From NCBI GenBank assembly GCA_020428645.1, contig JAGQMN010000001.1, positions 532-64,531 on the forward strand: a stretch of DNA of 64,000 nucleotides, given 5' to 3'. The position numbers and the translations under genes were made by a program. This document shows positions 10,413 through 63,988 of the stretch, piece by piece (position 1 is the first letter of the stretch; each line of letters begins with the position of its first letter). The notes beneath the pieces were generated by a model. The model did no database searches. It had not been told where the DNA came from and saw nothing but the letters and a program-made list of their open reading frames with translations. The stretch comes from Patescibacteria group bacterium (lineage in GTDB: Bacteria; Patescibacteriota; Minisyncoccia; Phycocordibacterales; UBA1006).

Positions 10413-10413
10413 C

Positions 10414-11058: not shown

Positions 11059-11094
11059 AACTTGTCAAAAAAATATTTTTGGTATATATTTCTG

Positions 11095-11113: not shown

Positions 11114-11130
11114 ACATTTTACACAAAAAT

Positions 11131-46681: not shown

Positions 46682-48583
46682 ATGAAGGTATACTCCTTGT
46701 ATATGAATCACAAAAAACGAATAAATATTTTATCCGGTATTGTTGCTCTAGTCATCTTTGCTATGCTTCCACCCTTTGCGCATGCAGCTCCGGTAATCAC
46801 TACGGTTACACCACAAGCAGACGGAACCTACACGACATCATTCGGTATTAACCTACAGTTGACCGTTGATGATATTGTAACCGTGACCGGAGAACCGTAC
46901 GTTGAATTTTTAATCGGTTCTCGAGTATATCAGGCCATACATTTCTCTACTGGTTTCCCTGGTGGAGGTGTTACGGTTCTGGGGTTTGTAGAAGGGGTTG
47001 AATCATACCACGCAGACAGCGATGGTGTTGAGATGCTCTCACCTATTATTTTGAATGGTGGAACAATTCGGAACGCAGGCAGTGAAGATCTCGTGCTCAC
47101 CTTTACTGAACCTAATACGTCAGGGGTGTTAGCTAATCCAAATGGGTCCGAAGTTGTTACGTTTTCACCGAGCCATAATGAGACAGGAGTTTCAGTCGAT
47201 ACCAACCTCGTGATGACGTTTGACGAAACAGTCGGTGCTGCATCTGGCAACGTGTTGATTAAACGCGCCTATGATGATGCAATCATCCAAACCATTGATG
47301 TTGCTGGCGGACCTGTTTCAGGAAATGGAACGACTACCATTACCATCAACCCTGAAACTGACCTTGATCCTGCGACCACTTACTATGTCGATATGAACGA
47401 AGGAGTGTTCCGAGATACCGACAGCGGTACGGATTTTGGGGGTGTTTCTGGAGAATACTTTTGGACGTTTACGACTGCGGGCACGGGTTCCGGTCGCATT
47501 GCGCCGTCCCCATCTACGGTAACAGTGGCTGAAGGTGATACGGTAGATATCGGAGTTCTGCTCGATCAACCGATTGTTGGTGATACCGAAGTGCAAATTG
47601 ACATCAGTTCTGCCGATACCAACAGAATCACCTCTAATGTTTCGAGTATTACGATCGATGCTGATACTTGGGAACAATCGGGAAACTTTACCCTCACGGC
47701 AGTTGATGATGATATCGACAATGTGAGCAATCAAGTTGTGGTCACCCTGACAGCAAACACAACAGCTGCATATTACGATGGTTTTGAAAATACCGTGACG
47801 GTGACGATTACCGATGATGATACGGCTGGAATCACCGCGCCGATTCCTATTCAATCAGTTACTGAGCACCCGACCTCGCCAACCATTGATACTATGAGTT
47901 TCGTTTTGGATTCCGAACCAACCGATGACGTTGTTATTACACCATCTTCATTGCGAAACCAAGTGAGTTTTAGCCCAACGAGCATTACCTTTACCAGCGC
48001 GAATTGGGATGATCAGCAGTCGATTACTACGAGTGCGATTGATGATAATAATTATGAAGGTACGCATAGCGATACCATTACGTTTAGTATCAGTTCTACG
48101 GATGCAATCTACGCGGCACTCTCTCTTGATGATGTTCCAGTCACCATTATAGATGATGAACAACCAACACGAAGTGGATCGAGGATGAATCCTGTTGTTG
48201 TACGCCAATTATTTGCCGATGCTGAATCATCTATTGAAGAAGAATCAACCATTGATGATGTTATTCAGTGTACCCAAGATCAATCTTTAACTCAGAACCT
48301 CACCAGGGGAGCCATTGATGGTCGCCCGCACGCGTATGCTGGTGGTATCGTAATCGATGTTGCACGTTTACAGAATTATATAAATCAGATACTAAAAGAC
48401 CGTTACTCGTTTGCTGCAGGTCCCATTGATGGTATGTTTGGGCCGTTGACGAAGCAGGGAGTAGTGAGAATGCAGCAAGTATTGATTAACGAGTACGGCT
48501 ATGATCTTGGTCCATTCGGTGCTGATGGAATCGTTGGTCCAATGACCCGTTCCGCGATTAATGCGTGGTGTAGTCGTGAATGA
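46682..48583 (+). CDS. Secreted or cell-surface protein with bacterial Ig-like repeats and a C-terminal peptidoglycan-binding domain
   Basis: N-terminal signal/anchor, then Ig-like segments (SPSHNETGVSVDTNLVMTFDETV...) and T/D/V-rich repeats. The C-terminal DGMFGPLTKQGVVRMQQ...GADGIVGPMTRSAINAW matches the PG_binding_1 motif DGxFGxxT...A. Confidence 0.6.
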   Translation: MKVYSLYMNHKKRINILSGIVALVIFAMLPPFAHAAPVITTVTPQADGTYTTSFGINLQLTVDDIVTVTGEPYVEFLIGSRVYQAIHFSTGFPGGGVTVLGFVEGVESYHADSDGVEMLSPIILNGGTIRNAGSEDLVLTFTEPNTSGVLANPNGSEVVTFSPSHNETGVSVDTNLVMTFDETVGAASGNVLIKRAYDDAIIQTIDVAGGPVSGNGTTTITINPETDLDPATTYYVDMNEGVFRDTDSGTDFGGVSGEYFWTFTTAGTGSGRIAPSPSTVTVAEGDTVDIGVLLDQPIVGDTEVQIDISSADTNRITSNVSSITIDADTWEQSGNFTLTAVDDDIDNVSNQVVVTLTANTTAAYYDGFENTVTVTITDDDTAGITAPIPIQSVTEHPTSPTIDTMSFVLDSEPTDDVVITPSSLRNQVSFSPTSITFTSANWDDQQSITTSAIDDNNYEGTHSDTITFSISSTDAIYAALSLDDVPVTIIDDEQPTRSGSRMNPVVVRQLFADAESSIEEESTIDDVIQCTQDQSLTQNLTRGAIDGRPHAYAGGIVIDVARLQNYINQILKDRYSFAAGPIDGMFGPLTKQGVVRMQQVLINEYGYDLGPFGADGIVGPMTRSAINAWCSRE

Positions 48584-49454: not shown

Positions 49455-49480
49455 TAAATAGTACATATTCGTGTACTATT
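49455..49480. terminator. Bidirectional hairpin between convergent genes
   Basis: aaatagtaca-tattcg-tgtactattt, a perfect 10-bp stem. Confidence 0.45.
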
Positions 49481-49910
49481 TATTATTGTAATTTGCTAGT
49501 AAATCTGATGAACTTCTGACCTTACCGCCGTGCCCGACATTGAATTCCATTTTGATATTATGTTCGTTACAAAAGACGAATTCGGGAATGTCGTCAGCGA
49601 ACCGGTCACCACCATTGGCAAAGATATCAGGCATTACCTCAGCCAGTGCCTTGCATACGCTGGTATCAGGATCGTCTACTTTGTGGTTGGTAATGACGAC
49701 CTCGTCCACGCAAGCGAAGGCTTCGATGATTTCCTTGCGATCTTGTTCATTCATAAAGTTTTTTCCTTTTTTAGTGCGTAGCCAGTTATCGTTGTTAATA
49801 ATCACAACGAGTTTATTTCCGAGTGCCTTGGCTTCTTTGAGATACCTAACATGACCAATATGAATTGGATCGAATCCACCTGAAACAGCAACAACGATTT
49901 CTTTCTTCAT
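49476..49910 (-). CDS. Cytidylyltransferase-family nucleotidyltransferase (HIGH-motif Rossmann; RfaE-domain-II/TagD-like)
   Basis: VAVSGGFDPIHIGHVRYL is the (H/T)xGH nucleotidyltransferase motif. About 144 aa, a single domain. Confidence 0.65.
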   Translation of the reverse strand: MKKEIVVAVSGGFDPIHIGHVRYLKEAKALGNKLVVIINNDNWLRTKKGKNFMNEQDRKEIIEAFACVDEVVITNHKVDDPDTSVCKALAEVMPDIFANGGDRFADDIPEFVFCNEHNIKMEFNVGHGGKVRSSSDLLANYNNK

Positions 49911-49948
49911 GTGCGTAGTATAACAAGTCTTGCTATACTACGCACATG
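49908..49948. promoter_or_regulatory. Perfect 15-bp inverted repeat (CATGTGCGTAGTATA, 11 nt, TATACTACGCACATG) spanning both divergent start codons
   Basis: Read directly from the sequence. The whole 35-bp gap between the divergent cytidylyltransferase and PMM-like genes is the palindrome. Confidence 0.4.
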
Positions 49949-50710
49949 AAGAAGTACAACACGATCATTTTTGATTTGGATGGGACGTTGGCAGTGACTA
50001 AATCTCCTCTGACAGATGAAATGGGTCAATTAGTTGCTCAACTCACCCAAAAAATAAATGTGGTCATTATTACTGGTGGTCGTTTTGAACAGATTAAAAA
50101 ACAGGTTATTGATAGACTTGGTGAAAACGTTGTACGTTCAAATTTTTACGTACTCCCTACAACAGGATCAAGTATGGTTGCATATGATTCAAAAACAAAA
50201 GAATGGAATTACGTATATCGTCATGAATTAACTAACGAACAAAAAGAACGAATCATTAATGGAATTAAACAAGCTTTGGAACAAGCATCGTTTTCTATTA
50301 ATCCTGATGATGTTTTTGAAAATCAATTTGAAGATAGAGGTTCTCAAATTACATTTTCGGCTCTCGGTCAATATCAAAAACCGGAAATCAAGATTGTATG
50401 GGATCCTGAACAGAAAAAACGGCAGGAATTATTATCCTATATGAATCACTTAGAGGACGAGTTTGCGCTTAATTTAGGGGGTTCTACATCTATTGATGTA
50501 ACCTTAAAGGGAATTGATAAGGAATATGGAATTAATGAATTTTATAAAACAACAGCACTTCAAATTAAAGATGGTCTTTTTGTTGGTGATAAAATTTTTC
50601 CTGGTGGAAATGATTATCCAGCAATAAAAACAGGGATTGATTACCGTGAGACATCAGGTCCTGAAGAAACGATGGAAATTATCCACGAGGTACTTCAATC
50701 ATACGACTAA
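49946..50710 (+). CDS. HAD-IIB hydrolase, eukaryote-type phosphomannomutase (PMM)-like
   Basis: IIFDLDGTLA (DxDGT), VIITGGRFEQI and especially FVGDKIFPGGNDYPAI align with the PMM motifs LFDVDGTLT, GVVGGSD and FFGNETSPGGNDFEIF. Confidence 0.6.
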   Translation: MKKYNTIIFDLDGTLAVTKSPLTDEMGQLVAQLTQKINVVIITGGRFEQIKKQVIDRLGENVVRSNFYVLPTTGSSMVAYDSKTKEWNYVYRHELTNEQKERIINGIKQALEQASFSINPDDVFENQFEDRGSQITFSALGQYQKPEIKIVWDPEQKKRQELLSYMNHLEDEFALNLGGSTSIDVTLKGIDKEYGINEFYKTTALQIKDGLFVGDKIFPGGNDYPAIKTGIDYRETSGPEETMEIIHEVLQSYD

Positions 50711-50743
50711 GACGTGTTATTATAGAGGTATCTTGTAATTTTT

Positions 50744-51088
50744 ATGAAGGCATCGCACGTGACAAAAAAACCATGGGGAGAGTTCAGGCAGTTTACGCTC
50801 AATCAAGAGTCTACGGTAAAGACCCTATCTGTTAATCAGGGAGAAGAGCTTTCATTACAGACTCATACATCACGTGAAGAATATTGGTACGTACTCGATG
50901 GTCACCCACGAATAACACAAGGAAAAGATATCTTTGATGCAGAACCAGGTCGAGAATTTTTTATCGAGCAGGGTGAAAAACACCGTATCGCTGCACCAAT
51001 TGATGACGTTCGCATTCTAGAAATCGCCTATGGACACTTTGATGAAGATGACATCGTTCGGCTCGAAGATCGTTACGATAGATCTTAG
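50744..51088 (+). CDS. Cupin-domain protein, mannose-6-phosphate isomerase type II C-terminal-like
   Basis: KPWGEFRQF...SLQTHTSREEYWYVLDG...EKHRI fits the cupin_2 / PMI type II pattern. Confidence 0.55.
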   Translation: MKASHVTKKPWGEFRQFTLNQESTVKTLSVNQGEELSLQTHTSREEYWYVLDGHPRITQGKDIFDAEPGREFFIEQGEKHRIAAPIDDVRILEIAYGHFDEDDIVRLEDRYDRS

Positions 51089-51111
51089 CTAACAATTATA
51101 TATTTATTTAC

Positions 51112-53070
51112 ATGAAGCGTTTCCTTTCACAACTTATCGAGATATTGGTACAACCTCTTGTTCCTGCTTGGCAGAAAGAGGCGCCTTTGTCTCAGGAAGT
51201 TATTGGAACAGCACACTTCGATAATCAGCATTACTTTTTTGTTCGTGATGGCGACAAGGTTTTTCTCGTGAGTGATACAGATACCTATGTTTATCGACAG
51301 AATGTGTGTTTCTCTCGGATTATGACGAGGCACATTCCAAACATGTGTGACCTTGATGCGGTAACCTTACCAAACGGAGAGCATGCCATGGTGTGTACGG
51401 TCAAACTCAAGCGAGGGTACAAAACTGTGTATCTTACTTCACAAGACACTCGTCACTTTAAGGCGTGGTCAATGGTACGTAATCCAAACGGACATGCGAC
51501 AAAAATTATTGTTCATGCAGCTAATCAGATAGCACTTGTAACCTCAATTAATGGTGAGATTTGTTATCGCGATCTTGATGTACACAACCGAAATGTTGAA
51601 TACCACACAACACCGCTTGTACCACGACACGATTCGTTTGATCATAGTCCACTGCGTGTAGTTGGTGTATTTGATCTACCTGACGGGGTGTTTGTGCTCT
51701 ACGATACATCGTACGAAATGCGTGGGTTCGTGACTCACCGGTTTGGCGCGGCACTTCTTGCCCACGGAAACCTTGGTCACTGTCACTGGCGAGCGTACTT
51801 TGATGAGGTGCCATTCTGGGATTATTTTGTTTCTAAAAAAGAAAACGAACACCTCTCACTCTCTGCTATTAGTGCGTACCACCGTGGAGATACCATTCAT
51901 GTCTACTTTTATGACTGCCTGAACCGAGATGTGTATACGCTCGATCTTCACGAACCGTACTCACGTCGTGATCCACATCCCGACAAGGCAATCTTGCGAA
52001 AGTATGTACACAATCCAATTTTGAAACCAAATGAAGACCACGCCTGGGAATGTTACGCGACATTCAATCCAACCGCACTTCAGATTGGTAACACAACACA
52101 TCTCCTCTACCGGGCTGAAGGTTCAGCAGGTCTTTCGGTGATTGGCTATGGCTCCAGCTATAATGGGGTTACCTTTGATCGTTTACCTGATCCAATATAT
52201 GTTCCAACGATGGACTTCGAGGGAGTGAACTTGTCGCCTGACATGATACGATTATTGCGAAAACGTTCGACTAGTTTTAAATCCGGATATAACCACTATC
52301 CAACTGATTACCATGGATACCGTTGGCACGGTGTTGAGGATCCACGTATGACCGAGATGGAAGGTCGAATCTACATGATTTATTCCGCGTATAATGGCTA
52401 CCAGATGGCGCGACCTGCAATTACCTCAATTGATACAAACGATTTTCTGAATCACCGCTGGAACTGGGCGGTTCCACAGGTGATGACCGAACAGGCGTAT
52501 GCATGGGGGCAGGGGAATAAGAACGTCGTTCTTCACCCGGAAAAGGTAAATGGTAAGTATGTAATTTTCCACCGCATATGGCCACACATCCGGATCGATT
52601 ACGTTGATAATCTCGAATTTGGTCCTGGTAAAAAGTACCTCAAAGAGCTTGCACGCATCGAGGCTCGTGGGGATTCGTGGGATAGTAACCGCGTTGGTGT
52701 TTCTTCCGCTCCTATTTTGATTGATGAGGGGTGGCTGATGATTTACCAAGGATCGGGTTCGCAAGATCGTCGCTATAAAGTTGGTGCTATGATTCTCGAT
52801 CGATATGATCCATCAAAGGTACTGTACCGCAGTGGACAACCAATCCTTGCACCAACTGAATGGTACGAAAACGACAACAAATCCGGCGTTGCGTACCCTT
52901 GTGGAGCGGTTGTTCGAGATGGTACTCTGTACGTGTACTACGGAGCATCAGACAAGTACGTATCGGTAGCAACGGCACCTCTTCGTGAATTTATTGATAA
53001 GCTCAAACATGATGCGTACCAAAAACCAGAACTTACCAAAAGAATCGGTATCGACGACCTATGTATATAA
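51112..53070 (+). CDS. GH130-family glycoside hydrolase/phosphorylase domain protein with a ~290-aa N-terminal extension
   Basis: The C-terminal half carries NPILKPNEDHAWECYATFNPTA and GVEDPRMTEMEGRIYMIYSAYNG, the GH130 beta-mannoside-phosphorylase catalytic-Asp region. The N-terminal 290 aa are unassigned. Confidence 0.7.
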   Translation: MKRFLSQLIEILVQPLVPAWQKEAPLSQEVIGTAHFDNQHYFFVRDGDKVFLVSDTDTYVYRQNVCFSRIMTRHIPNMCDLDAVTLPNGEHAMVCTVKLKRGYKTVYLTSQDTRHFKAWSMVRNPNGHATKIIVHAANQIALVTSINGEICYRDLDVHNRNVEYHTTPLVPRHDSFDHSPLRVVGVFDLPDGVFVLYDTSYEMRGFVTHRFGAALLAHGNLGHCHWRAYFDEVPFWDYFVSKKENEHLSLSAISAYHRGDTIHVYFYDCLNRDVYTLDLHEPYSRRDPHPDKAILRKYVHNPILKPNEDHAWECYATFNPTALQIGNTTHLLYRAEGSAGLSVIGYGSSYNGVTFDRLPDPIYVPTMDFEGVNLSPDMIRLLRKRSTSFKSGYNHYPTDYHGYRWHGVEDPRMTEMEGRIYMIYSAYNGYQMARPAITSIDTNDFLNHRWNWAVPQVMTEQAYAWGQGNKNVVLHPEKVNGKYVIFHRIWPHIRIDYVDNLEFGPGKKYLKELARIEARGDSWDSNRVGVSSAPILIDEGWLMIYQGSGSQDRRYKVGAMILDRYDPSKVLYRSGQPILAPTEWYENDNKSGVAYPCGAVVRDGTLYVYYGASDKYVSVATAPLREFIDKLKHDAYQKPELTKRIGIDDLCI

Positions 53071-55007
53071 CCAGACGATCAGATCACAACCCGTTTATCA
53101 GACCGAACGAAGAAAAGCACTGGATGTCCTACGCAACCTTCAACTGGTCACCATGGCACGATGAAGAAACACATACTATTCATGCGTTATACCGTGCTAT
53201 GACGAAACCTGACCTCCTCGCATCAGGTCCGTCTTTTAGTGTGTCTTCAATTGGTTATACCTATAGTAACGATGAGGAACACTTCACTCACCACGAACAG
53301 TTTATTTTTTCAGAGGAAGAGTGGGAACGGTATGGGTGCGAAGATCCACGTGTGACGAAAATCGGTGATACCTACTACATTTTCTACACAGCACTCTCAA
53401 CCTATCCTTTTTCAGCTGAGGGTATTAAAGTTGCTGTTGCAACTACCAAGGATTTCAAAACGATTGACGAAAAAAAATTAGTAACTCCATTCAACGCAAA
53501 GGCGATGACACTCTTTCCAGAGAAAATAAATGGCAAATTTACTGCGCTCCTTACCGTTGATCCCGATAAACCACCGTCAAAGATTGCATTCATCCAGTTT
53601 GATTCTGAAGAACAAATCTGGGATCAGGGCTACTGGCATAATTGGTATGCGAACATCGACGACCATATCTTTGATCCACGAAAACGTGATGACGATCATT
53701 GTGAGATTGGTGCTGCACCGGTGTGGACTGATGAGGGATGGCTTCTTGTGTATTCACATATTCAGCACTATTTTAATGAATCTGAGCGAGTATTTGGTAT
53801 AGAAGCGCTGCTTCTCGACCACGATGACCCAAAAAAGATTCTTGGTAGGACAACTGGGCCCATCCTTGTCCCAGAGAAAACCTATGAAAAAGAAGGTCAG
53901 GTACACAACATTACGTTTCCATCAGGTGCGCTGCTTCATGGTGATCGTCTCGACATCTACTATGGTGGAGCAGATTCAGTATGTTGTATGGCAACTGTCA
54001 ATCTACACCATCTCTTGGACAGTATGAATATAGAGAAACGTAAAGAGCACATTGTTCGCTACGCCGGTAACCCAATTTTGGAGCCAATTCGTGAGAACGA
54101 ATGGGAAGCAAAACTGGTCTTCAATCCAACCACCGTCGATATCGGTGAAAAAACCTATATTGTGTACCGTGCTATGTCACAGGACAACACCTCGTACATG
54201 GGAGCTGCGGTGACTACCGATGGCTACACCATTGATGAACGTTTTTCTGAACCAATCTACGTTCCACGTATGGATTTCGAGATGAAGAAATCACATCCAA
54301 CAGGGAACTCTGGATGTGAGGACGGTCGTGCAACGGTCATCGGCGACACCCTCTACATGTTTTACACCGCGTACAATGGGGTGGATGCTCCCAGGGTTGC
54401 TTTTTCATCAATTTCATTGAACCATTTCGAGGCAAAGAACTGGAATGCATGGTCAGAACCACAGCTGGTAACGCCAGATGGAATAGATGACAAAGATGCC
54501 TGCCTCCTCGCTGAAAAAATTAGAGACGAGTACGCGATCTTTCACCGCATCAAACACCATGTGTGTTTTGACACGGTACCTGAACTCGATTTTTCAAAAC
54601 ATCGATTGAATAAGTGTATTCCATTAATTGGCCCACGAACTGGGATGTGGGACGGACTGAAGGTTGGTATTGCTGGTCCCCCTATTAAGACTGATGCAGG
54701 ATGGTTACTGTTGTACCACGCAGTATCAACTGATAAATACTATCGCGTTGGCGCGATGTTGATGGAGCTCGATAATCCAGGTAACATCATCGGACGTACG
54801 ACTGATTTCATTCTCGAACCCGAAGAACGGTGGGAACTTGAGGGTGAGATCAACAAAGTTGTCTTCCCGTGTGGTGCCTCGATTCGTGGTGATGAACTCT
54901 TTATCTACTACGGTGGAGCCGATACCGTGGTTGGGGTAGCAACGACAAAGCTCTCATGGCTACTTGACGTATTGACCTGGCAACGTGATTCAGACAATTG
55001 GTCGTAA
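53061..55007 (+). CDS. Tandem double GH130-domain protein
   Basis: Domain 1 has NPFIRPNEEKHWMSYATFN...GCEDPRVTKIGDTYYIFYTA. Domain 2 starts at about nt 54,033 with NPILEPIRENEWEAKLVFNPT...GCEDGRATVIGDTLYMFYTAYNG. The gene overlaps the upstream GH130 gene by 10 nt. Confidence 0.7.
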   Translation: MYITRRSDHNPFIRPNEEKHWMSYATFNWSPWHDEETHTIHALYRAMTKPDLLASGPSFSVSSIGYTYSNDEEHFTHHEQFIFSEEEWERYGCEDPRVTKIGDTYYIFYTALSTYPFSAEGIKVAVATTKDFKTIDEKKLVTPFNAKAMTLFPEKINGKFTALLTVDPDKPPSKIAFIQFDSEEQIWDQGYWHNWYANIDDHIFDPRKRDDDHCEIGAAPVWTDEGWLLVYSHIQHYFNESERVFGIEALLLDHDDPKKILGRTTGPILVPEKTYEKEGQVHNITFPSGALLHGDRLDIYYGGADSVCCMATVNLHHLLDSMNIEKRKEHIVRYAGNPILEPIRENEWEAKLVFNPTTVDIGEKTYIVYRAMSQDNTSYMGAAVTTDGYTIDERFSEPIYVPRMDFEMKKSHPTGNSGCEDGRATVIGDTLYMFYTAYNGVDAPRVAFSSISLNHFEAKNWNAWSEPQLVTPDGIDDKDACLLAEKIRDEYAIFHRIKHHVCFDTVPELDFSKHRLNKCIPLIGPRTGMWDGLKVGIAGPPIKTDAGWLLLYHAVSTDKYYRVGAMLMELDNPGNIIGRTTDFILEPEERWELEGEINKVVFPCGASIRGDELFIYYGGADTVVGVATTKLSWLLDVLTWQRDSDNWS

Positions 55008-55051: not shown

Positions 55052-55417
55052 ATGAAGATATTTGTAACACACTCTAGCGATATTAATGTACATGAAGATT
55101 TGTATCAACCAATCAGAGAATCAGAATTGAATAAAAAACACGACATTAAGTTACCACAAGAGTTTGGTAAAGAAACAATTACCAAAGAACTCATTCAATC
55201 TCAAGATTTTATTATTGCCGAATCCTCAATGCCTTCGACCGGTTCAGGTATTGAATTAGGTTGGGCTGATATGTACAACGTACCGATACTCAATGTATAT
55301 AAAAAGAATAGTAAATCTTCATCTTCACTACGGTACGTAACTGATAATCATATTGAATACATAGATAGCAAAGACATGGTTAATAAAATTACAGATTTTA
55401 TTGATAACCAAGTATGA
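55052..55417 (+). CDS. Nucleoside 2-deoxyribosyltransferase-like small Rossmann protein
   Basis: STGSGIELGWA resembles the GTxxExGxA motif of the nucleoside deoxyribosyltransferase-like family. Support is weak. Confidence 0.35.
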   Translation: MKIFVTHSSDINVHEDLYQPIRESELNKKHDIKLPQEFGKETITKELIQSQDFIIAESSMPSTGSGIELGWADMYNVPILNVYKKNSKSSSSLRYVTDNHIEYIDSKDMVNKITDFIDNQV

Positions 55418-56127
55418 GTAAAAAATTAATTGCTATACAAAAAACTCAACGAGCTGTTGAAATGGCGATGCAGGCAGTCATTGATTACCTAAAGACTCAC
55501 CCTACACCAACATCAGAACGAGCTCATGAAATCATTGATGAAGTGCTCACCGAACATGGTTGCGAATCACCTGAGAGGCACATTGTTACTTCTGGAATCC
55601 AGTCCCACGAACCACACGAAGAGGGAACAGGTTTGATCGAACAAGGGGTACCGATTGTGATTGATATTTACCCTCGATCCACAGAGTCGGGTTACTTTGC
55701 CGACATGACACGGACGGTGTGTATTGGAACATCACCATTTGAACTACAGCGTATGTACGGTACCGTGCTCGAAGCACAGAATATGGCGATCAGTATGCTT
55801 GCACCAGGTGTTCGTTGTAGTGATGTACATAATGTTGTTGCAGAATTTTTTATCAATCAAGGCTACGAAACCAACGGAAAGGGTAGCGAGTTCACCTATG
55901 CTGAGGGTTTTGTGCATGCGCTCGGTCACGGGGTATCTACAAAGATCCATGACAAACCAACACTTAGCCCAAAGAGTGAAGATATTTTACAAGAAGGCGA
56001 CGTAATCACCATTGAACCTGGGCTATATTACAAACACATTGGCGGTATCCGCATCGAGGATATGTTCGTGATTACCGAAACTGGTGTTGAACGAATCACC
56101 CAATTTCCTCACCTTTTTCAAATTTAA
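55414..56127 (+). CDS. M24-family metallopeptidase catalytic domain (Xaa-Pro / methionine aminopeptidase-like pita-bread fold)
   Basis: Metal-ligand pattern D (FADMTRT), H (HALGHG), E (ITIEPG), E (IRIEDM). Only the catalytic domain is present. Its start overlaps the upstream stop. Confidence 0.7.
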   Translation: MSKKLIAIQKTQRAVEMAMQAVIDYLKTHPTPTSERAHEIIDEVLTEHGCESPERHIVTSGIQSHEPHEEGTGLIEQGVPIVIDIYPRSTESGYFADMTRTVCIGTSPFELQRMYGTVLEAQNMAISMLAPGVRCSDVHNVVAEFFINQGYETNGKGSEFTYAEGFVHALGHGVSTKIHDKPTLSPKSEDILQEGDVITIEPGLYYKHIGGIRIEDMFVITETGVERITQFPHLFQI

Positions 56128-56158: not shown

Positions 56159-59100
56159 ATGAACTACATCAAAAAATTTCGTGAACTGACAAAAAAAGAC
56201 GCTGATATCGCAGGAGGAAAGGGTGCCTCCCTTGGAGAAATGCTCAATGCTGGAATTCCCGTTCCTGATGGATTTGTGGTGACTGCCGATACTTTTGATT
56301 TCTTTCTTGCTGAAACTGATCTCGTTCAGGAAATTGGTGCTATTTTGAAAAAAGTGGATACCCAGGCAATTCACACTGTTGATGATGCATCTGAACAAAT
56401 TCAAAATCTGATTCGCAGTGCACAGATGCCTGAATCTGTGGCTTCTGAAATCCTCAAAGATTTTGATGAACTTGATACGGCTTACGTTGCAGTTCGTTCT
56501 TCGGCAACTGCCGAAGACGGTGCTGATCATGCATGGGCAGGGCAACTTGATTCGTACCTCAACACAACGAAAGATATGCTCCTCGAAAAAGTTCAGTCGT
56601 GTTGGGCATCACTGTTTACTCCACGGGCGATCTTTTACCGGTTTGAAAAAGGTCTTCACACCACTCACATCTCTGTTGCGGTGGTAATCCAGAAAATGGT
56701 GAACTCTGAAAAATCAGGGATTGCTTTTTCAGTGCATCCAGTGACTGAAGATTACAATCAGATGATTATCGAGGCAGGTCTTGGACTCGGCGAGGCTATT
56801 GTTTCTGGTTCGGTTACCCCCGATTCCTACGTAGTTACCAAAGACCCACAGGAAATTATCGATAGCAACGTTAATACTCAAACCAAGGCACTGTACCGTA
56901 CTGCCACAAAGGGTGACCACGGTTTCAACGAATGGAGAGAACTATCTGAAACCGAAGCTAATCAGCAGGTACTTGATAACACACAGATCATCGAGTTAGC
57001 AAACATTATTGAACGTATCGAAAATCACTACGGATTCCCATGTGATATTGAATGGGCGTATGAAAACAATACCTTCTTTATTGTCCAATCTCGACCAATT
57101 ACAACGCTATCGAATAAAACGGTAGACCTAAAAAAAAACGATAGTGTAGCAAAACTTACCTTTGAACGAGAGTATACACGGGATTTTTCAATAATTCTCG
57201 AAGATTTTTGGCATCACGGATTAATGAGTTGTTATCGTGATATTCTTCAATCTGAACCTCTACATGAAACCCCCCTCGTTACATATATACATGATGGTGT
57301 TGTTGAAACATGGCAAAATCGTCCATTCATCAATGATCTAAAGAAAAAAATTCTTGAACGTAATATTGCTGATCCATCTTTTCTTAATCCTATTATGGCG
57401 GACTATCGTGTTTTACTTGATACCTTTAAACAGTATCGGGCACAGAAAAAATTTGCACAATCACACAAAGATATTAAAGAACTCTTGGCGCAGTTTAAAG
57501 AGGGAATTCGTCTATGGATTCCGTGGGGGCATGCAGCCTATGTAGAAGAAACACCAAAAGATATTTGGGATAAAACTATGGCGCTTCGTGATATTGATAC
57601 ATTTTGGGATGATGCTGATTACGTATTACGGAAGAGTATTATTAATGTTTACCCGGAGCTTGAAGGGTGTGAGAATACTATCCTTGCGGAAGAGCTGTTA
57701 ACCGGTTCTGACAGCTTTGACAATAACCAGTACACAAAACGTCTCTCTGGGTATGTTCATATTCCTGGTCGGTCACACTGGTTTGGTGACTTAGCAAGCG
57801 CTGAAGAAAAGTACAGAGATCTACAATTTAACTACCCGACGAATGAGATTGTAAACAATGGTTTCAAAGGCGAAATCGCATATGCTGGTAATCAAGAAGT
57901 CATTACTGGTAAGGTTCGTATTATCAAGAGAAAAGACCAAGTACGTACATTACAAGATGGTGAGGTATTAGTCTCGCCAATGACAACACCCGACTTTGAA
58001 CCAGCAATGAAGCGTGCGGTAATCACTATTACCGATGAAGGTGGGATCACTTGTCATGCGGCAGTTGTTGCCAGAGAGATGAAGTTACCATGTATTACTG
58101 GAACCCGAATTGCTACTAGTTTTTTGAATGATGATGACACCGTTTCAGTAAATACAAAAACAGGAGTTGTGACTCGTATTGCATCTAAATTTCCTAATGG
58201 CGAATGTTTTAAAAACATGTCGACTCCAGATGCATGGAACTACACAGGGAAGTGGATTCAAAATCCACTATGTTCAAGTTTTTGGGCTGCGTATCACCAA
58301 ACTGATATTGTTCAGAAAATTTATCCTGATCGAGAATTTGGTATTGAGTTCAGCGTTGATGGTCACTGGCGAGAGAACCTTGTTGATATCACATATATGA
58401 AATCAGAAATCATCAGAAGATATCAAGATGGTAGTCTAGATAAATTTGTTCAAAATTTCGATTCGGTAGGTAATGAGATTCAAAATGTACTCTTAAAAGA
58501 GATTAATGAAATTAGTATTAATACATTACCACTTCAAGAGATCTTTGCTTGCTATCAAGATTTGTTCACTTATTGGGGTTTTCTAACATTCTTAGGTGAC
58601 TTAACCATGCCAGTTGCAAACGAGGTAAATCTTGTTTCCTCTGATGGTGAATTTTTCGAGATGACTCATCCTCATCTTCGTCTAACCTGGATTGAATATG
58701 AAGAAGAAAAAACACGTGAAATCGCTCAAGAAGTAATTAATTTAGGTGCAGGTGTTTGTAATATCGAACTCATAAAGAAAAATAAAACTATTTCAAAGCT
58801 TGTCAAAGAATATTTTGAAAATTTTGCGTGGGTTGGTGTTAACAAATGGGAAGGAGAGGGAATGAACGATGAGAAATTAGTTGAACGAGTAAATCAGGCA
58901 ATTGAAAACATTAAAGAAGGAAACTTTTTTGAATCTCGTTCTCCTAATGAATCTATTTTTAAAGAACTTAATCCACTCGTGCAACTTGGTGTATCTACTG
59001 CGTATTGGCGTGCGACCTGTGCTAGTTTAGCAGCTCGCTTTGAGTATCTGATACAAGAGCGAATGAGTAAGTTGGCAAAGAAACATAAGATTACTTACAA

Positions 59101-62100
59101 TGATATTATTTATCTTAGTAAGCACGAGGTTCTTATCCTTGAAAATGAGGGAACCTTACTTGTTCCAGTAAAAGATATACAAGAACGTAAAGAAGGTTTT
59201 GCGTGTTTTGTTGATGTTGAAGGTACACTCAATGTCGTGTCAGGTAATAATAGGGTGTATCAAAAACTCAAAAAGCTCTATGGTAGTGCACCAAAGTTAG
59301 AGTTTAATAAAAGTTTTATTGAGGGAATGCCAGCATGCAAAGGTTTTGCTGAAGGGCGAGTTACAATTGTTTCCAGTAAAGATGATTTCCATAAGTTTCA
59401 AAAAGGGAATATTCTAGTCTCCGAAGAAACAACACCTGCTTTCGTACCTTTAATGAGACAAGCGTCAGCAATTGTAACTGATCGTGGAGGTATCACCTCG
59501 CATGCTGCTATTGTTTCTAGGGAACTTGGTAAACCTTGCATTATTGCTACTAAAAACGCTACTCAAATTTTAAAAGATGGAGATTTGGTTGAGGTGGATG
59601 CTGATAACGGAATTGTGCGTATCATCGAAACATCCCAAAAAAAAACTCAAAATGAGGTAGAACAAGATATTGTTGATAAGGTTGCTAAACAAAAATATCA
59701 TTATATTCACAAACGTTATCGCACTCCATTCTATATGGAACTCATGTGGAAAGGCGCAAGTGTTTCTTGTAAAGATTCAAAAATCCCTTTTGATTATTTA
59801 GTTGAGGGTCTTTATCTTGATACAGAGATTGGGTTTGAAGATAGGGATTGGAATAATGCTAAAAAGATTACTTGGGAATTTACACATCAAAATCCTAAAT
59901 TGTTTTTAAAGATGATTGAAGATGCGTACTCAATCCAAACATCTATTCGTAAATCAATAAAAAAAATTACTCAAGATATTGACAAGGTTAATAAACAAGA
60001 TGTCGTTAGGTTTTGGCAAGAATATGCAAGACGTATGCACGCATTTGGACAGTATCTTCTTCCTCCGTTATTTATCGAATCGATTCTAGAGGAACGTATA
60101 CAAAAAGCAATTACACAAGTATTATCAAAACATGATTTCAATGAAGTGTTTCGGATTTTAACAACCCCTATGAAATTAGGAACTGCTGTTTTAGAAGAAC
60201 TGTCAATTCTTGATATTGCAATTGCAGAAAAGAATAAAAAACCCGTAGATGGTTTAATAGAAAAACATTTAGAAGATTTTGGTTGGACGAAAAATAATTC
60301 TCATGATGGGAAATTTAATACCATCAATGATATTGAAGACAGTGTTCAAAAAGTTTTGAGTGAAAGCGATCCATCAATTTTAAAACAACACATTGAAGAA
60401 GATATTGCTCACACCAAAGAGAAATTTGATTCATATTTCTCCATGTTTGACAAAGAGACGCAAAGTCTCATTGAAATATTACAAGAATCTATTTATTATC
60501 GTAGCTGGCGTACTGAACGTTACTATAAAAATGCATATTATTTAGATTCACTATTCCGTAAAACCGCAGAGATTTTAAACATGCAAATGTATTCTGATAT
60601 TTTCTTTTTAACGATTGATGAAATAATTTCACTACTCAAGGGCAAGAGTTTTGATTTCAAAGATCTTATACAAAATCGCAAATTAGGTTATGCAGTTTAT
60701 GCTACTGAAACAGGCACACACGTTTTTCAAGGCGAGGATGTATTGAAAATGAAAGAATCTGTAAAATTTTTTGATGAATCCCAACAGACAGATGTCATTA
60801 TCGGACAACAAGCATATCCAGGTGTCGTATCGGGCAGAGCCCGTGTTATTTTGGACAAGAAAAACTTGGATAGAGTTCAAGAAGGAGATATTCTTATTAC
60901 TCCAGCCACAACAGTTGATTATGTTCCTACATTAAAAAAAGTGAAAGCCATTGTAACCGATGAGGGTGGTGTACTTTGCCATGCGTCTGTTATTTCGCGG
61001 GAATTACGCATACCGTGTATCATTGGTACGAAAAATGGTTCCAAGATTATTCAAGATAATAGTGTAGTTGAAGTTGATGCCAATACAGGAACAGTACATA
61101 TTCTTGACAAAGAGCAAAAAGAAAATACGCACATAAATTTTGACCTCAACCAAGAACCGTTGGTGTGGGGTCCTGTTGGCATGAACTCTATACTATCGTT
61201 TACTACTTGGGTACCTGGCTTATACAATGGTTTTTCAAAACAATTTCCAGGATATTCGTGGCCGAAACTACTCGCACTGTTTAAGGAATATTTCTTTGCA
61301 TGGATTCACGAGTTGCAAGATATTGAAAAACATGGAGCTGATGTTTTTGTGGATCTCATGATGAATCCAAAGGTACGAGAACAAGCACGCAGTGAATGGG
61401 AACAATCAAAGGACCGTTTACGTGATGTTGAAGAGATACTTGAACAGCACAATCTTACTCAGCTTAGTGGTGACGAGTACTTGAACCTATGGCGCCAAAT
61501 GGAAACAGCCATTACAGATTTTTGGGTGTGGTCGAGTTTGCCTGAACTTGCTAACTATGGATCAATCAATGTTTTGAAAGAGCGCTTAAAAAACAACGTA
61601 CCTAAAGACAATATAATGTCGGTATTAGAAATACTCACCGCACCCGAAGATATTTCGTTTTTTCAACAAGAGGAAATTGACCTTGCACGGACTCATGATC
61701 TTGAGGCACATCAGCAGAACTACTTTTGGTTAAACAACAGCTACGCACACATTGAGGTTACACCTGTTTCATTTTTTGAAAAACGAAAAGCAGTGTTATC
61801 ACCAAGCATTGAAACTGAAATAGCCGAACGCATGGCGTCAGTCAAAGAAGCTAAACAGAATGTCCAAAAACAATATAATCTCTCGGACGAAATTATGGAG
61901 ATGGCGTACCGTATTACTGATGGAATTATTTGGCAGGATAAACGAAAGAAAGAGGTATGGGTATATCTCCACTACGAGGAGCAAATGTTCCATGAAGCGG
62001 CACGACGAACCAATACAGATGTACAAGACGTAAAGTTACTTCTTTTTGAAGAATTTGAGCCTTTTATTAAGGGTGAGATTAATATCGATGATATTAAAAA

Positions 62101-63988
62101 CCGGACTGATGGTTTCCTGGTATACATTGATGAACACCAAAACATGAAAACTTATGGTTCTAATATTGCGAACTACTACTGGAATCACTACTTTCCTTCG
62201 GAAAAAGATCTCAGTATTACCTCTTTGAAAGGTACTGTTGCGAGTAAAGCCGAATCCGGCAATGTACAAGGTAGTGTAAGAATTATTCTCGATGCGACAA
62301 AGTGCAAAGATTTTTGTCCTGGTGATGTTTTAGTGACTACGATGACAACACCCGAATTTGTATTTCTTATGAAACAAGCGTCAGCGATTGTGACTGACAC
62401 TGGAGGATTGACCTCACACGCTGCGATTGTTGCGCGTGAGCTTGGTAAACCATGTATTATCAATACGAAATCAGCGACCCGTGCGCTAGAAGATGGTGAC
62501 TTGATTGAAGTTAATACTGATGTAGGTGAGGTTACTATTATAGAACGATCGAATACCTCACATTCGCTCCCCATTAATCCACATGACTACAAATTTATTG
62601 GGCTTTGGAAGGAAGATTTGTTTCCAGCATACTTTTGGGCTCGGTGGTTTGATGTAAAGAAAAATAATAAACTTGGATTTACAGAAATCACTAATAGTGG
62701 AGCACTTATTTTGAAAGGTGGGAACTTTTTTTGGAGTCATCAAATGCGAGATCAAATGAAAGCACTCCTTGATCGAGTTGTTGAAACAAAAGATACCTCA
62801 CTGTTTAAGAATTTATACAAACAAGCTAATAAATGTTTTAGGGACACAATGAAAAAGGCCGACACATTGGCAAAAGAAGAACCAGATACTGAAAATTTTG
62901 AAACATTCATTCAATTAGGTCGTGACCTCATGTATTATTGGACCTTTGGCGCTTCAATGGCAGAGTTTGTTGATGAGTATATTATCGAGCATGCATCCAG
63001 AGAACATATTAAACCTTCTGATGTAGTTGGGTATGTAGACATACCAGAGACTGAACTTATGCGTCAGCAGTCGGCACTTCGTGAATTTCATCAGGAATTT
63101 AAAAAACGAGGTTGGCTTGATAGAATCGATGGTGATCGAGAATCACTTATTCATGATATTCAACAAGATAAGAAACTCTACAAAAAATTAGAGAAACATA
63201 TGTATGAGTATGGCTGGATTGAAATGTTGAACTATGTTGGTGACGTTATAACCTTTGATAGATTCCTTACCATTATTGGAGGTGTTGGAGAAGAGCAGAA
63301 ACCCCAAGAAAAGAAAAAAGTTTCAGATACATTTAATTTTATTCTTAATATCGCTTCCTACATTGGTTACGCACGTCAAGCTGGAGCGGAGTATTCTTCA
63401 GTGTTTTCCTATAAACTACATGACTACTTAAAAGCTACAGCAGAAAAAATAAATGTATCTTACTCAGAAATGTTAAACCTGACACCGGAAGAAATTATAC
63501 TTGCACTCTCAAATAACTTAGATCCACAGCCACTACTACAACGACGAGCAAATAGAAATTGGTTAGTGTGGTGGGACAAACATCAACATGCACAGGTTGT
63601 AGATGATTCAGATATTATCAATAAATTGTACGAGAAAATGGTTCCTATTATAGAGGATGATCAACGTCAACTTGTTGGTCAAACTGGTAATAAGGGTAAG
63701 GTTGTTGGAAAAGTGAGTGTAATTATGGCCACCGAGGATTTTGGAGCATTCAAAGAGGGTAACATTTTAGTCACTACTATGACGACACCAGATTTCGTAG
63801 TCTTAATGCAAAAAGCATCGGCAATCGTGACTGATATCGGAGGTTTACTGTCCCATGCATCAATTGTCTCACGCGAACTTGGTAAACCTTGTGTTATTGG
63901 TACAAAATTTGCTACTCAAATACTCAAAGATGGTGATATGGTTGAAGTTGATGCGGATAACGGAGTTGTTAAGATTCTAGAAAAATAA
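56159..63988 (+). CDS. Giant PEP-synthase/rifampin-phosphotransferase-like protein (2609 aa): one N-terminal PPDK_N-type ATP-binding domain plus five tandem phosphohistidine swivel modules
   Basis: N-terminus DIAGGKGASLGEMLNAGIPVPDGFVVT...AVRSSATAEDG is the PPDK_N/PEP-synthase nucleotide-binding domain (about aa 1-315). There are five copies of the mobile-domain motif GG(I/L/V)(T/L)(S/C)HA(A/S)(I/V)V(S/A)RE(L/M)...P, with His codons at 58055, 59501, 60980, 62417 and 63854, each preceded by a ~390-aa spacer domain. There are no internal stops and no PEP/pyruvate TIM-barrel motifs. Confidence 0.75.
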   Translation: MNYIKKFRELTKKDADIAGGKGASLGEMLNAGIPVPDGFVVTADTFDFFLAETDLVQEIGAILKKVDTQAIHTVDDASEQIQNLIRSAQMPESVASEILKDFDELDTAYVAVRSSATAEDGADHAWAGQLDSYLNTTKDMLLEKVQSCWASLFTPRAIFYRFEKGLHTTHISVAVVIQKMVNSEKSGIAFSVHPVTEDYNQMIIEAGLGLGEAIVSGSVTPDSYVVTKDPQEIIDSNVNTQTKALYRTATKGDHGFNEWRELSETEANQQVLDNTQIIELANIIERIENHYGFPCDIEWAYENNTFFIVQSRPITTLSNKTVDLKKNDSVAKLTFEREYTRDFSIILEDFWHHGLMSCYRDILQSEPLHETPLVTYIHDGVVETWQNRPFINDLKKKILERNIADPSFLNPIMADYRVLLDTFKQYRAQKKFAQSHKDIKELLAQFKEGIRLWIPWGHAAYVEETPKDIWDKTMALRDIDTFWDDADYVLRKSIINVYPELEGCENTILAEELLTGSDSFDNNQYTKRLSGYVHIPGRSHWFGDLASAEEKYRDLQFNYPTNEIVNNGFKGEIAYAGNQEVITGKVRIIKRKDQVRTLQDGEVLVSPMTTPDFEPAMKRAVITITDEGGITCHAAVVAREMKLPCITGTRIATSFLNDDDTVSVNTKTGVVTRIASKFPNGECFKNMSTPDAWNYTGKWIQNPLCSSFWAAYHQTDIVQKIYPDREFGIEFSVDGHWRENLVDITYMKSEIIRRYQDGSLDKFVQNFDSVGNEIQNVLLKEINEISINTLPLQEIFACYQDLFTYWGFLTFLGDLTMPVANEVNLVSSDGEFFEMTHPHLRLTWIEYEEEKTREIAQEVINLGAGVCNIELIKKNKTISKLVKEYFENFAWVGVNKWEGEGMNDEKLVERVNQAIENIKEGNFFESRSPNESIFKELNPLVQLGVSTAYWRATCASLAARFEYLIQERMSKLAKKHKITYNDIIYLSKHEVLILENEGTLLVPVKDIQERKEGFACFVDVEGTLNVVSGNNRVYQKLKKLYGSAPKLEFNKSFIEGMPACKGFAEGRVTIVSSKDDFHKFQKGNILVSEETTPAFVPLMRQASAIVTDRGGITSHAAIVSRELGKPCIIATKNATQILKDGDLVEVDADNGIVRIIETSQKKTQNEVEQDIVDKVAKQKYHYIHKRYRTPFYMELMWKGASVSCKDSKIPFDYLVEGLYLDTEIGFEDRDWNNAKKITWEFTHQNPKLFLKMIEDAYSIQTSIRKSIKKITQDIDKVNKQDVVRFWQEYARRMHAFGQYLLPPLFIESILEERIQKAITQVLSKHDFNEVFRILTTPMKLGTAVLEELSILDIAIAEKNKKPVDGLIEKHLEDFGWTKNNSHDGKFNTINDIEDSVQKVLSESDPSILKQHIEEDIAHTKEKFDSYFSMFDKETQSLIEILQESIYYRSWRTERYYKNAYYLDSLFRKTAEILNMQMYSDIFFLTIDEIISLLKGKSFDFKDLIQNRKLGYAVYATETGTHVFQGEDVLKMKESVKFFDESQQTDVIIGQQAYPGVVSGRARVILDKKNLDRVQEGDILITPATTVDYVPTLKKVKAIVTDEGGVLCHASVISRELRIPCIIGTKNGSKIIQDNSVVEVDANTGTVHILDKEQKENTHINFDLNQEPLVWGPVGMNSILSFTTWVPGLYNGFSKQFPGYSWPKLLALFKEYFFAWIHELQDIEKHGADVFVDLMMNPKVREQARSEWEQSKDRLRDVEEILEQHNLTQLSGDEYLNLWRQMETAITDFWVWSSLPELANYGSINVLKERLKNNVPKDNIMSVLEILTAPEDISFFQQEEIDLARTHDLEAHQQNYFWLNNSYAHIEVTPVSFFEKRKAVLSPSIETEIAERMASVKEAKQNVQKQYNLSDEIMEMAYRITDGIIWQDKRKKEVWVYLHYEEQMFHEAARRTNTDVQDVKLLLFEEFEPFIKGEINIDDIKNRTDGFLVYIDEHQNMKTYGSNIANYYWNHYFPSEKDLSITSLKGTVASKAESGNVQGSVRIILDATKCKDFCPGDVLVTTMTTPEFVFLMKQASAIVTDTGGLTSHAAIVARELGKPCIINTKSATRALEDGDLIEVNTDVGEVTIIERSNTSHSLPINPHDYKFIGLWKEDLFPAYFWARWFDVKKNNKLGFTEITNSGALILKGGNFFWSHQMRDQMKALLDRVVETKDTSLFKNLYKQANKCFRDTMKKADTLAKEEPDTENFETFIQLGRDLMYYWTFGASMAEFVDEYIIEHASREHIKPSDVVGYVDIPETELMRQQSALREFHQEFKKRGWLDRIDGDRESLIHDIQQDKKLYKKLEKHMYEYGWIEMLNYVGDVITFDRFLTIIGGVGEEQKPQEKKKVSDTFNFILNIASYIGYARQAGAEYSSVFSYKLHDYLKATAEKINVSYSEMLNLTPEEIILALSNNLDPQPLLQRRANRNWLVWWDKHQHAQVVDDSDIINKLYEKMVPIIEDDQRQLVGQTGNKGKVVGKVSVIMATEDFGAFKEGNILVTTMTTPDFVVLMQKASAIVTDIGGLLSHASIVSRELGKPCVIGTKFATQILKDGDMVEVDADNGVVKILEK

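Follow-up and report, generated by a model that had tools for sequence, protein, structure and literature searches.

The 64,000-nucleotide stretch analysed here (the window) comes from a Patescibacteria group bacterium (assembly GCA_020428645.1, contig JAGQMN010000001.1) and carries a compact cluster of five open reading frames (ORFs), which was originally predicted to form a mannose and mannoside salvage cluster. All five ORFs were confirmed with unchanged coordinates. A nucleotidyltransferase (NT; 49476-49910, reverse strand, 144 amino acids, aa) diverges from four forward-strand genes, which encode a HAD protein (49946-50710, 254 aa), a cupin (50744-51088, 114 aa) and two proteins of the GH130 family, GH130-A (51112-53070, 652 aa) and GH130-B (53061-55007, 648 aa). 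Packing is tight, with gaps of 33 bp between the HAD and cupin genes and 23 bp between the cupin and GH130-A genes, and an overlap of 10 bp between GH130-A and GH130-B. The gene identities first assigned were right at the family level (Pfam PF01467, PF03332, PF01050 and PF04041), and the motifs DLDGT, GGNDY, KKPWG and HIGH were borne out by translation. For each cluster protein, the nearest relatives were found in Patescibacteria metagenome-assembled genomes, which makes the organism a member of the Candidate Phyla Radiation (CPR) of the Paceibacteria type.

The neighbourhood of these genes was surveyed in 86 loci (80 species representatives, five contigs from other sources and the window), annotated with hidden Markov models built from the proteins of the window; 52 of these loci have complete flanks. 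GH130-B, which consists of two GH130 domains in tandem, belongs to a family with more than 5500 database relatives of ~630-650 aa and with members in at least 588 GTDB species representatives. In 84 of the 86 loci, the tandem GH130 gene is immediately preceded by a second GH130 gene, while a PF01050-type cupin is adjacent in 59 and a phosphomannomutase (PMM)-like HAD gene in 46. Among loci with complete flanks, the cupin is present in 42/52, any hexose-phosphate mutase in 38/52 and the NT in 16/52 (31%), and only five lack all three. These loci span many lineages and classes of Patescibacteria as well as Omnitrophota. Other neighbours vary among the loci, no other family occurs in more than 14 of the 86, and those that recur are housekeeping genes. 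As the neighbourhood is kept across phyla while the remaining neighbours differ, the association is functional rather than due to chance, and the five genes represent a genuine conserved gene cluster. Homologous genomes thus do not place these genes in unrelated contexts. The split arrangement, described in the original prediction as atypical, is indeed so in comparison with model bacteria, but is the norm in this phylum. A literature search, limited in coverage, found no paper on GH130 clusters or tandem GH130 proteins in the CPR, and one Microgenomates genome paper that names GH130 once.

Both GH130 proteins match PF04041 (cutoff 26 bits), GH130-A with 139.5 bits and GH130-B with 294.7 bits in two stretches. 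By sequence and by fold, both are closest to the Thermoanaerobacter beta-1,2-mannobiose phosphorylase (7FIP) and beta-1,2-oligomannan phosphorylase (9FJ8). The AlphaFold2 model (pLDDT 92.9, pTM 0.90) gave Foldseek TM scores of 0.86-0.90 to 7FIR and 9FJ8, and a Foldseek search returned no tandem GH130 protein among solved structures. Specificity for beta-1,2 linkages in this family is marked by a glutamate beside the catalytic aspartate and a lysine at the +1 subsite (PMC4599007; PMC12814180). In Uhgb_MS numbering, the signature comprises E136 (of the pair E136-D137), K184 (K199 in BT3780) and R47 of the YRA motif (PMC12814180; PMC4599007). Phosphorylases bind the phosphate nucleophile with three basic residues, which are lost or exchanged for carboxylates in hydrolases (PMC4599007; PMC12814180). 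The GH130 domains of the window were aligned with Teth514_1788, Teth514_1789 and Uhgb_MS and scored for R202, R242 (or lysine) and H261, plus Y269 (Uhgb_MS numbering), and the same columns were counted in 115 tandem homologues and in 82 species loci. The beta-1,2 signature is present in both domains of GH130-B and in the C-terminal domain of GH130-A, and is invariant in the 115 tandem and 81 A-type homologues; the N-terminal domain of GH130-A lacks it. The substrate first proposed, a beta-mannoside, can thus be narrowed by this signature to the beta-1,2 linkage.

The alignments indicate that the two proteins contain four GH130-fold propellers, and that exactly one of them, the C-terminal domain of GH130-B (54051-54980, forward strand), has a canonical phosphorylase site. 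This domain scored 174.6 bits against 7FIP, 167 bits against 9FJ8 and 217 bits against NF052550, the beta-1,2-mannobiose phosphorylase equivalog. Its phosphorylase residues (E420-D421, K478, H495-R496, K534, H553 and Y561) are each found in 115 of 115 homologues, as would be expected of a beta-1,2-mannoside phosphorylase-type active site. The full set of phosphate ligands was missing, in the alignment, from the N-terminal domain of GH130-B and from GH130-A. Hence the suggestion that the GH130 enzymes of the cluster are phosphorolytic does not apply uniformly, since only the GH130-B C-terminal domain among the four has a complete phosphate site. Against NF052550, the whole of GH130-B scored 382 bits over its two domains (cutoff 450), with single-domain scores in the cluster of 217, 170 and 198 bits.

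The N-terminal domain of GH130-B (53061-54035, forward strand) keeps the sugar-binding and catalytic residues N28, R45, E94-D95, K147 and D305, all of them invariant or nearly so. However, its phosphate ligands are always replaced: H201-R202 has become L164-T165 (L/F-T/S in the family), H261 is S232, Y269 is F245, and H213 occupies the position of R242. Where the phosphorylase domain has K-V-G, this domain carries the motif D212-H213-x-E215-x-G217, with the glutamate present in 115/115 homologues. Such strict conservation rules out simple decay. With the phosphate ligands lost and the D-H-x-E motif invariant, the domain is predicted under the published rule (PMC4599007) to be non-phosphorolytic and hydrolase-like. 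The beta-1,2-mannosidases BT3780 and BACOVA_03624 (Cuskin et al., 2015, PMC4599007) provide a close parallel, in that the -1 subsite, the Glu-Asp pair and the beta-1,2 lysine are kept, the basic phosphate ligands are lost and a carboxylate is found in the region of the phosphate pocket. Nevertheless, the overall sequence of the GH130-B domain resembles the GH130_6 phosphorylases (170 bits) more than the BT3780-type model NF058598 (82 bits, cutoff 550) and, unlike these enzymes, it is fused to a phosphorylase domain. Its acidic residue lies in D-H-x-E, two residues past the R242 equivalent, whereas the BT3780 type has the glutamate pair E227/E268; the equivalence of E215 or H213 with E268 of BT3780 is approximate, as 5A7V was compared by coordinate ranges.

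The C-terminal domain of GH130-A (52000-53007, forward strand; PF04041 139.5 bits, 7FIP 147 bits) keeps E409-D410, K470, H487-R488 and R527, and has a glutamine (Q546) at the position of Uhgb_MS H261. The copy in the window retains R202 and R242, which are missing in most orthologues of other species. Across the loci, this partner GH130 is either a single-domain protein of ~370-450 aa (50 loci) or a double-propeller protein of ~600-680 aa (31 loci), and R202 and R242 are absent from all of the short and about two thirds of the long forms. The N-terminal domain of GH130-A (51205-51936, forward strand, residues ~32-275) is a degenerate GH130-fold propeller without a catalytic Glu-Asp pair, with "CDLD" at 51343 in place of the "CEDP" of active domains. 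The N-terminal 295 residues have no Pfam or NCBIfam match; however, a profile comparison (hhalign) aligned the domain with the C-terminal domain of GH130-B over 228 columns (probability 98.7%, E = 3.6e-16). Four tandem GH130 relatives are ~1.5 times longer (P0018, 1110 aa; P0022, 978 aa; P0031, 971 aa; P0063, 996 aa) and apparently have either a third GH130-type domain or some other additional domain (PF22847 in P0022).

The cupin is a stand-alone mini-cupin related to the C-terminal phosphomannose isomerase (PMI) domain of type II PMI/GMP enzymes. It matches PF01050 with 68.9 bits (threshold 23.6), compared with 29.8 bits for Cupin_2, and aligns to positions 360-466 of the GMP_PMI profile TIGR01479, which is the C-terminal PMI region. 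The motifs PWG (50771-50779, in the N-terminal KKPWG), SLQxHxxRxExW (50852-50887) and KHRI (50978-50989) are all present on the forward strand, and P10, W11, G12, S37, L38, Q39, H41, R44, E46, W48 and H80 are invariant. Q39, H41, E46 and H80, which we take from the type II PMI motif to be the metal and active-site ligands of a PMI, are found in 18/18 aligned sequences and are at least 90% conserved in 59 sequences, so that the cupin has not lost its presumed ligands. Known type II PMI/GMP enzymes (AlgA, XanB, WbpW and CBU0671; PMC3204966) share this C-terminal domain and its SLQxHxxRxExW/H motif, but are bifunctional, whereas the window protein is a single domain with no fused N-terminal NTP_transferase (GMP) domain, the nucleotidyltransferase apparently being supplied by a separate gene of unrelated fold. 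A phmmer search of the Protein Data Bank (PDB) with the cupin returned no match, and a profile search returned only ~40-bit matches to the small cupins 7ZVY and 7ZVM. Assignment as a D-lyxose/mannose isomerase was rejected, given that the matches to 7NZO and 2Y0O had E > 0.2 and PF01050 was the best family. PMI activity is therefore a prediction from conserved residues, and even genuine type II PMIs do not always complement manA (PMC3204966).

The HAD protein belongs to the PMM branch of HAD-IIB and is a putative hexose-phosphate mutase. It matches PF03332 (PMM) with 48.3 bits (threshold 22.4), tied with PF08282 (Hydrolase_3) at 48.2 bits, and carries DLDGT (49973-49987, residues 10-14), the cap motif EDRGS (50330-50344) and GGNDY (50603-50617, residues 220-224), all on the forward strand. 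All 17 of its PDB matches are PMMs or the PMM-related alpha-phosphoglucomutase (alpha-PGM) of Lactococcus lactis. With PMM1, PMM2 and this L. lactis enzyme (PgmH/APGM), it has in common the HAD-IIB fold, the PMM-type cap, DxDxT, GGND and a length of ~250 aa. The original description as a eukaryote-type PMM-like protein stands as a statement of fold, but the closest characterised relative is a phosphoglucomutase, the atypical alpha-PGM of L. lactis (4BND; 130 bits, E = 6e-37), compared with ~60 bits for PMM2. DxDxT, GGND and the cap residues E-D-R...GQ...K...R are conserved in 44 family members, and these motifs with their basic cap residues fit a mutase with a bisphosphate intermediate rather than a simple phosphatase. 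A Cof phosphatase was rejected on the basis of TIGR00099 (44.3 bits, cutoff 137) and of the PDB matches, which include no Cof-type structure; a mannosyl-3-phosphoglycerate phosphatase was likewise rejected, as only PMM and APGM structures match and the PMM-type cap is conserved. Mannose as the putative substrate is favoured by the operon context alone.

The NT is an enzyme of the HxGH cytidylyltransferase fold, as had been proposed (PF01467, 60.8 bits, threshold 21), with HIGH at residues 17-20 (49851-49862) and KVRSSS at the C-terminus (49506-49523), both on the reverse strand. Across the family, SGGFDPxHxGH and KxxSSS are conserved, and identity within Paceibacteria is 65-70%. The best NCBIfam models are rfaE_dom_II (HldC-like, TIGR02199; 76 bits, cutoff 181.5) and TIGR01518 (TagD; 54 bits, cutoff 165), and relatives in the PDB include ECT (3ELB), 3GLV, 5X9Q and TagD. 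The NT has the same small HxGH nucleotidyltransferase fold and motifs as HldC/RfaE domain II and TagD. No ManC-type domain (PF00483, NTP_transferase fold) was found among the cluster proteins or the scanned ORFs of the window, which bears out the assignment as a non-ManC-type nucleotidyltransferase.

In the window the NT is divergent, and it is missing from that position in a relative at 83% identity. In many genomes, however, it reads in the same direction as the rest of the cluster and comes first (nt-mutase-cupin-GH130-GH130). As an unbiased check, five loci were chosen by NT homologues alone. In three of these (L086-L088) the NT lies directly upstream of (cupin)-GH130-tandem GH130, and the fourth (L091) has the order NT-DUF1361-cupin. 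In the fifth (L092, 6001-12441), a 146-aa NT homologue heads a GT2/Wzm/Wzt (Wzt_C)/methyltransferase-GT1/GT1 polysaccharide cluster; this suggests that the NT there feeds surface-glycan synthesis, which fits a nucleotide-sugar-forming enzyme. The possibility that the divergent NT is an unrelated gene was rejected on the basis of the census and of the loci seeded with the NT, and the NT belongs to the cluster.

The gene that follows the NT encodes the PMM-like HAD protein in most genomes. In L045, L046 and L080 it encodes instead a canonical alpha-D-phosphohexomutase (454-547 aa) spaced 1-2 bp from the NT, and in L065 and L076 a different HAD type fills the same slot. This non-orthologous displacement argues that the slot is that of a hexose-phosphate mutase and that the NT probably acts on the sugar 1-phosphate which the mutase supplies. 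A DUF1361 (PF07099) membrane protein of ~216 aa is found in the mutase slot between NT and cupin in at least five genomes (L026, L042, L043, L079 and L091, 6479-7126). The polysaccharide cluster of L092 also encodes a 908-aa methyltransferase-kinase-like-GT1 protein and resembles ABC-transporter-dependent polymannose O-antigen systems.

The closest known system is the Teth514_1785-1796 cluster of Thermoanaerobacter sp. X-514, which encodes the beta-1,2-oligomannan phosphorylase Teth514_1788, the beta-1,2-mannobiose phosphorylase Teth514_1789, a mannose 1-phosphate (Man-1-P) guanylyltransferase and a GT4, and for which phosphorylase-driven salvage of GDP-mannose has been proposed (Chiku et al., 2014, PMC4264767). 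Both clusters contain two adjacent cytoplasmic GH130_6-like genes (34% identity, TM 0.86-0.90) beside a nucleotidyltransferase, and in both the proposed route leads from a beta-1,2-mannoside and inorganic phosphate (Pi) through alpha-Man-1-P to a nucleoside diphosphate (NDP)-mannose without ATP. The clusters differ in their components. The Thermoanaerobacter cluster has an ABC transporter, a GH5 and the GT4, none of which is found in the window cluster; it lacks a PMM or PMI, whereas the window cluster has the HAD mutase and the PMI-like cupin. Its nucleotidyltransferase is of the ManC type (NTP_transferase fold) rather than of the HxGH cytidylyltransferase fold, and its GH130 proteins are single-domain, both canonical phosphorylases, in contrast to the two double-propeller proteins with one canonical site seen here.

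In the reading we favour, with moderate confidence, the cluster would be a cytoplasmic beta-1,2-mannoside and mannose-phosphate module of Patescibacteria, acting as a salvage route and metabolic hub. The C-terminal propeller of GH130-B would phosphorolyse beta-1,2-manno-oligosaccharides to alpha-Man-1-P, reversibly and with no use of ATP, and the C-terminal propeller of GH130-A may share this activity. The N-terminal propeller of GH130-B would bind the same sugar but could not hold phosphate, and most likely hydrolyses the beta-1,2-mannosidic bond independently of Pi, where that bond is refractory to the phosphorylase (e.g., in the last disaccharide or in mannose linked to an aglycone). The N-terminal propeller of GH130-A would be a non-catalytic partner. 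Man-1-P and mannose 6-phosphate (Man-6-P) would be interconverted by the PMM-fold HAD mutase, and Man-6-P and fructose 6-phosphate (Fru-6-P) by the mini-cupin as a stand-alone equivalent of a type II PMI, which would provide the link to glycolysis. Finally, the HldC/TagD-fold NT would combine Man-1-P with a nucleoside triphosphate to give NDP-mannose for glycan synthesis. Of this, the identities of the domains, the residue patterns of the active sites, the linkage of the genes across phyla and the lack of signal peptides and transporters are observed, whereas we infer the substrates and activities of all members, the sugar specificities of the mutase and NT and the net direction of flux. Breakdown and salvage are taken as the default direction because every GH130 system characterised to our knowledge is catabolic; the mannoside could be either imported or self-made. 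The ATP-free route to Man-1-P, Man-6-P and Fru-6-P or to a nucleotide-sugar, as first envisaged, agrees with the logic proposed in Thermoanaerobacter, but the GH130 proteins are not uniformly phosphorolytic.

Several observations weigh against this reading. All NCBIfam equivalog cutoffs are missed by the cluster proteins, and the best structural match of the HAD protein is the L. lactis alpha-PGM, which is reportedly glucose-specific. Since R202 and R242 are missing from most GH130-A orthologues, a pair of phosphorylases of differing chain-length preference is not the general rule. We know of no cytidylyltransferase-fold enzyme that acts on alpha-Man-1-P. HldC uses a manno-configured sugar 1-phosphate, but its substrate is beta-heptose-1-phosphate, whereas GH130 phosphorolysis yields the alpha-anomer of Man-1-P; unlike HldC, the NT has no heptose pathway in its context. 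Furthermore, sugar transporters, binding proteins, secreted glycosidases and regulators are not associated with the cluster in any of the 86 loci, and none occurs in the 64-kb window either, save for a distant EamA protein. The translations of GH130-A and GH130-B, when inspected, had no signal peptide-like N-terminus. The scavenging of host glycans suggested in the original prediction is consequently without direct support, and no environmental source of beta-1,2-mannan is known to us for these organisms.

The principal alternative is an endogenous cycle resembling that of the Leishmania reserve mannogen, which we regard as a possible but less probable explanation. Here the cell would synthesise a cytoplasmic beta-1,2-mannan itself, with Fru-6-P turned into NDP-mannose by the cupin PMI, the mutase and the NT. 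A GH130 paralogue with a reduced phosphate site, either GH130-A (in most species) or the N-terminal domain of GH130-B, would be a beta-1,2-mannosyltransferase dependent on NDP-mannose or Man-1-P, and the C-terminal domain of GH130-B would mobilise the polymer as Man-1-P. Such a cycle would have its counterpart in the Leishmania GT108 enzymes (MTP1-7; Sernee et al., 2019; Franceus et al., 2024, PMC10913872), which share the five-bladed propeller and catalytic pocket and act on a cytoplasmic beta-1,2-mannan. In GT108, as in GH130, changes at the phosphate site separate transferase from phosphorylase within a family of paralogues; the AlphaFold2 model also matched MTP2 and MTP4 by Foldseek (6Q50 and 6Q4Y). 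GT108 differs in belonging to another CAZy family, with 13-16% identity and no tandem fusion.

In favour of such a cycle, the enzymes are all cytoplasmic, none of the 86 loci has a linked transporter, and the full route from Fru-6-P to NDP-mannose is present in the biosynthetic gene order nt-mutase-PMI-GH130-GH130. Phosphate ligands are lost to differing degrees among conserved GH130 paralogues, and conservation of the operon in at least 588 species with reduced genomes suggests a core function and not the use of a rare substrate. In addition, GDP-mannose transferase activity is measurable in all beta-1,2-specific GH130 phosphorylases tested, and with fewer phosphate contacts the balance shifts from phosphorylase towards transferase (PMC12814180). 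However, this transferase activity is weak (kcat/Km < 0.03 s-1 mM-1; PMC12814180). The loss of H201, R202, H261 and Y269 makes binding of an NDP leaving group by the N-terminal domain of GH130-B seem unlikely, and its invariant glutamate looks more like a hydrolase base. The copy of GH130-A in the window retains R202 and R242, and only 31% of the complete loci have the NT. We are aware of no report of beta-1,2-mannan from a CPR or Omnitrophota organism, and no mannogen-like polymer is known in the bacteria that carry the operon. We put forward only tentatively that Patescibacteria and Omnitrophota might keep a bacterial mannogen as an ATP-neutral reserve, its precursors Man-1-P and NDP-mannose supplied by a non-canonical route of mini-cupin PMI, HAD-type PMM and HldC-fold NT, and, with the same caution, that the GH130 propellers might share out the work, one as synthase, one as phosphorylase and one as a hydrolase-like trimming domain in permanent fusion with the phosphorylase.

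It is unlikely that only part of the cluster serves mannose metabolism, with the cupin and the GH130 proteins cooperating, the HAD protein being a general alpha-phosphoglucomutase and the NT a housekeeping enzyme for another phosphorylated substrate (e.g., of the CDP-glycerol or ADP-heptose type) linked by synteny only. The score of the HAD protein against 4BND, twice that against PMM2, would agree with this, as would the unrelated contexts of its homologues outside CPR (Chitinophaga and Baltobacteraceae, e.g., beside transketolase), although the latter are uninformative. The NT is far more conserved (65-70% identity) than the other cluster members, its best models are HldC and TagD, and two of the five loci seeded with it have no GH130. 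On the other hand, the mutase slot is found beside GH130 or cupin in 38/52 complete loci and is filled by three unrelated or distinct types of mutase, the NT is translationally coupled to the mutase (1-2 bp) in L045, L046 and L080, and it directly abuts the cupin or a GH130 gene in L086-L088. Chance adjacency of unrelated genes or mis-called ORFs, for which only the general compactness of CPR genomes could be invoked, is effectively refuted by the census, with order and adjacency kept across Patescibacteria classes and Omnitrophota while all remaining neighbours differ, and by strong purifying selection on active-site residues.

The divergent region between the NT and HAD genes contains an inverted repeat (49903-49953, no strand) with 25-nt arms that are 96% complementary according to a repeat search. 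Its arms span the entire 35-bp intergenic region and the first three codons (ATGAAGAA) of both genes, and as RNA it would fold with -32.4 kcal/mol (z = -8.5). In the closest relative (L006), a perfect 13+13 palindrome that shares the TAGTATAnCAA core lies 4 nt ahead of the HAD start. No further copies of the arm were found in the window beyond chance, and scans for promoters and terminators gave nothing above the shuffled background. The repeat may act as an operator, or it may form a hairpin in which the start codons of the NT and HAD genes are hidden.

Downstream of GH130-B, a 121-aa ORF with no family match (55052-55417, forward strand) starts after 44 bp and overlaps by 4 bp an N-terminally short M24 peptidase of 237 aa (55414-56127, forward strand). 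These two genes may be co-transcribed with the cluster, and their pairing with it is not kept in other genomes. They are followed by a giant ORF of 2609 aa (56159-63988, forward strand) with one PPDK_N (ATP-grasp) domain and five PEP-utilizers mobile (phosphohistidine swivel) domains; Pfam detects no PEP/pyruvate-binding barrel, and the multi-swivel architecture is unusual. Upstream of the cluster, a 633-aa protein (46682-48583, forward strand) has an N-terminal hydrophobic segment resembling a signal or anchor, a Big_5 domain and a C-terminal peptidoglycan-binding domain, and a similar PG_binding_1 protein lies near the cluster in L004. At 23795-27197 (forward strand), a TraG/VirD4-like coupling-protein ATPase (654 aa) precedes a 544-aa protein with two lamin-tail domains. 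Elsewhere in the window are genes for ribosomal proteins, DnaK/DnaJ/GrpE, aminoacyl-tRNA synthetases, TopA, DnaB and the like. One Saccharibacteria-labelled locus (L003) has a GH63/MGH1-like (mannosylglycerate hydrolase-like) glycosidase (9921-11276) after the GH130 pair, in place of the cupin and HAD genes, and an ATP-grasp gene upstream.

The CPR or Patescibacteria make up a large share of bacterial diversity and combine a minimal metabolism with conserved genes that are mostly functionally untested. The logic of the pathway discussed here is already known (Chiku et al., 2014, PMC4264767). What is new is the set of components, in which a PMI cupin that stands alone, a HAD-type mutase and an NT of the HldC fold take the place of ManA, ManB and ManC, together with the variable GH130 that is obligatorily paired with a tandem GH130, the rebuilding of the phosphate site in the N-terminal domain of the latter, and the breadth over which the cluster is conserved in CPR and Omnitrophota. 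The operon would give these organisms an ATP-free entry of mannose into glycolysis and nucleotide-sugar synthesis through three non-orthologous replacements of the classical enzymes. The strongly conserved natural fusion of a canonical GH130 phosphorylase with a GH130 domain of rebuilt (D-H-x-E) phosphate site offers a test case for the divergence of phosphorylase, hydrolase and transferase within one fold, a question under current study in GH130 and GT108. If it is true that the substrate is endogenous, the cluster would represent the first bacterial analogue of the Leishmania mannogen cycle.

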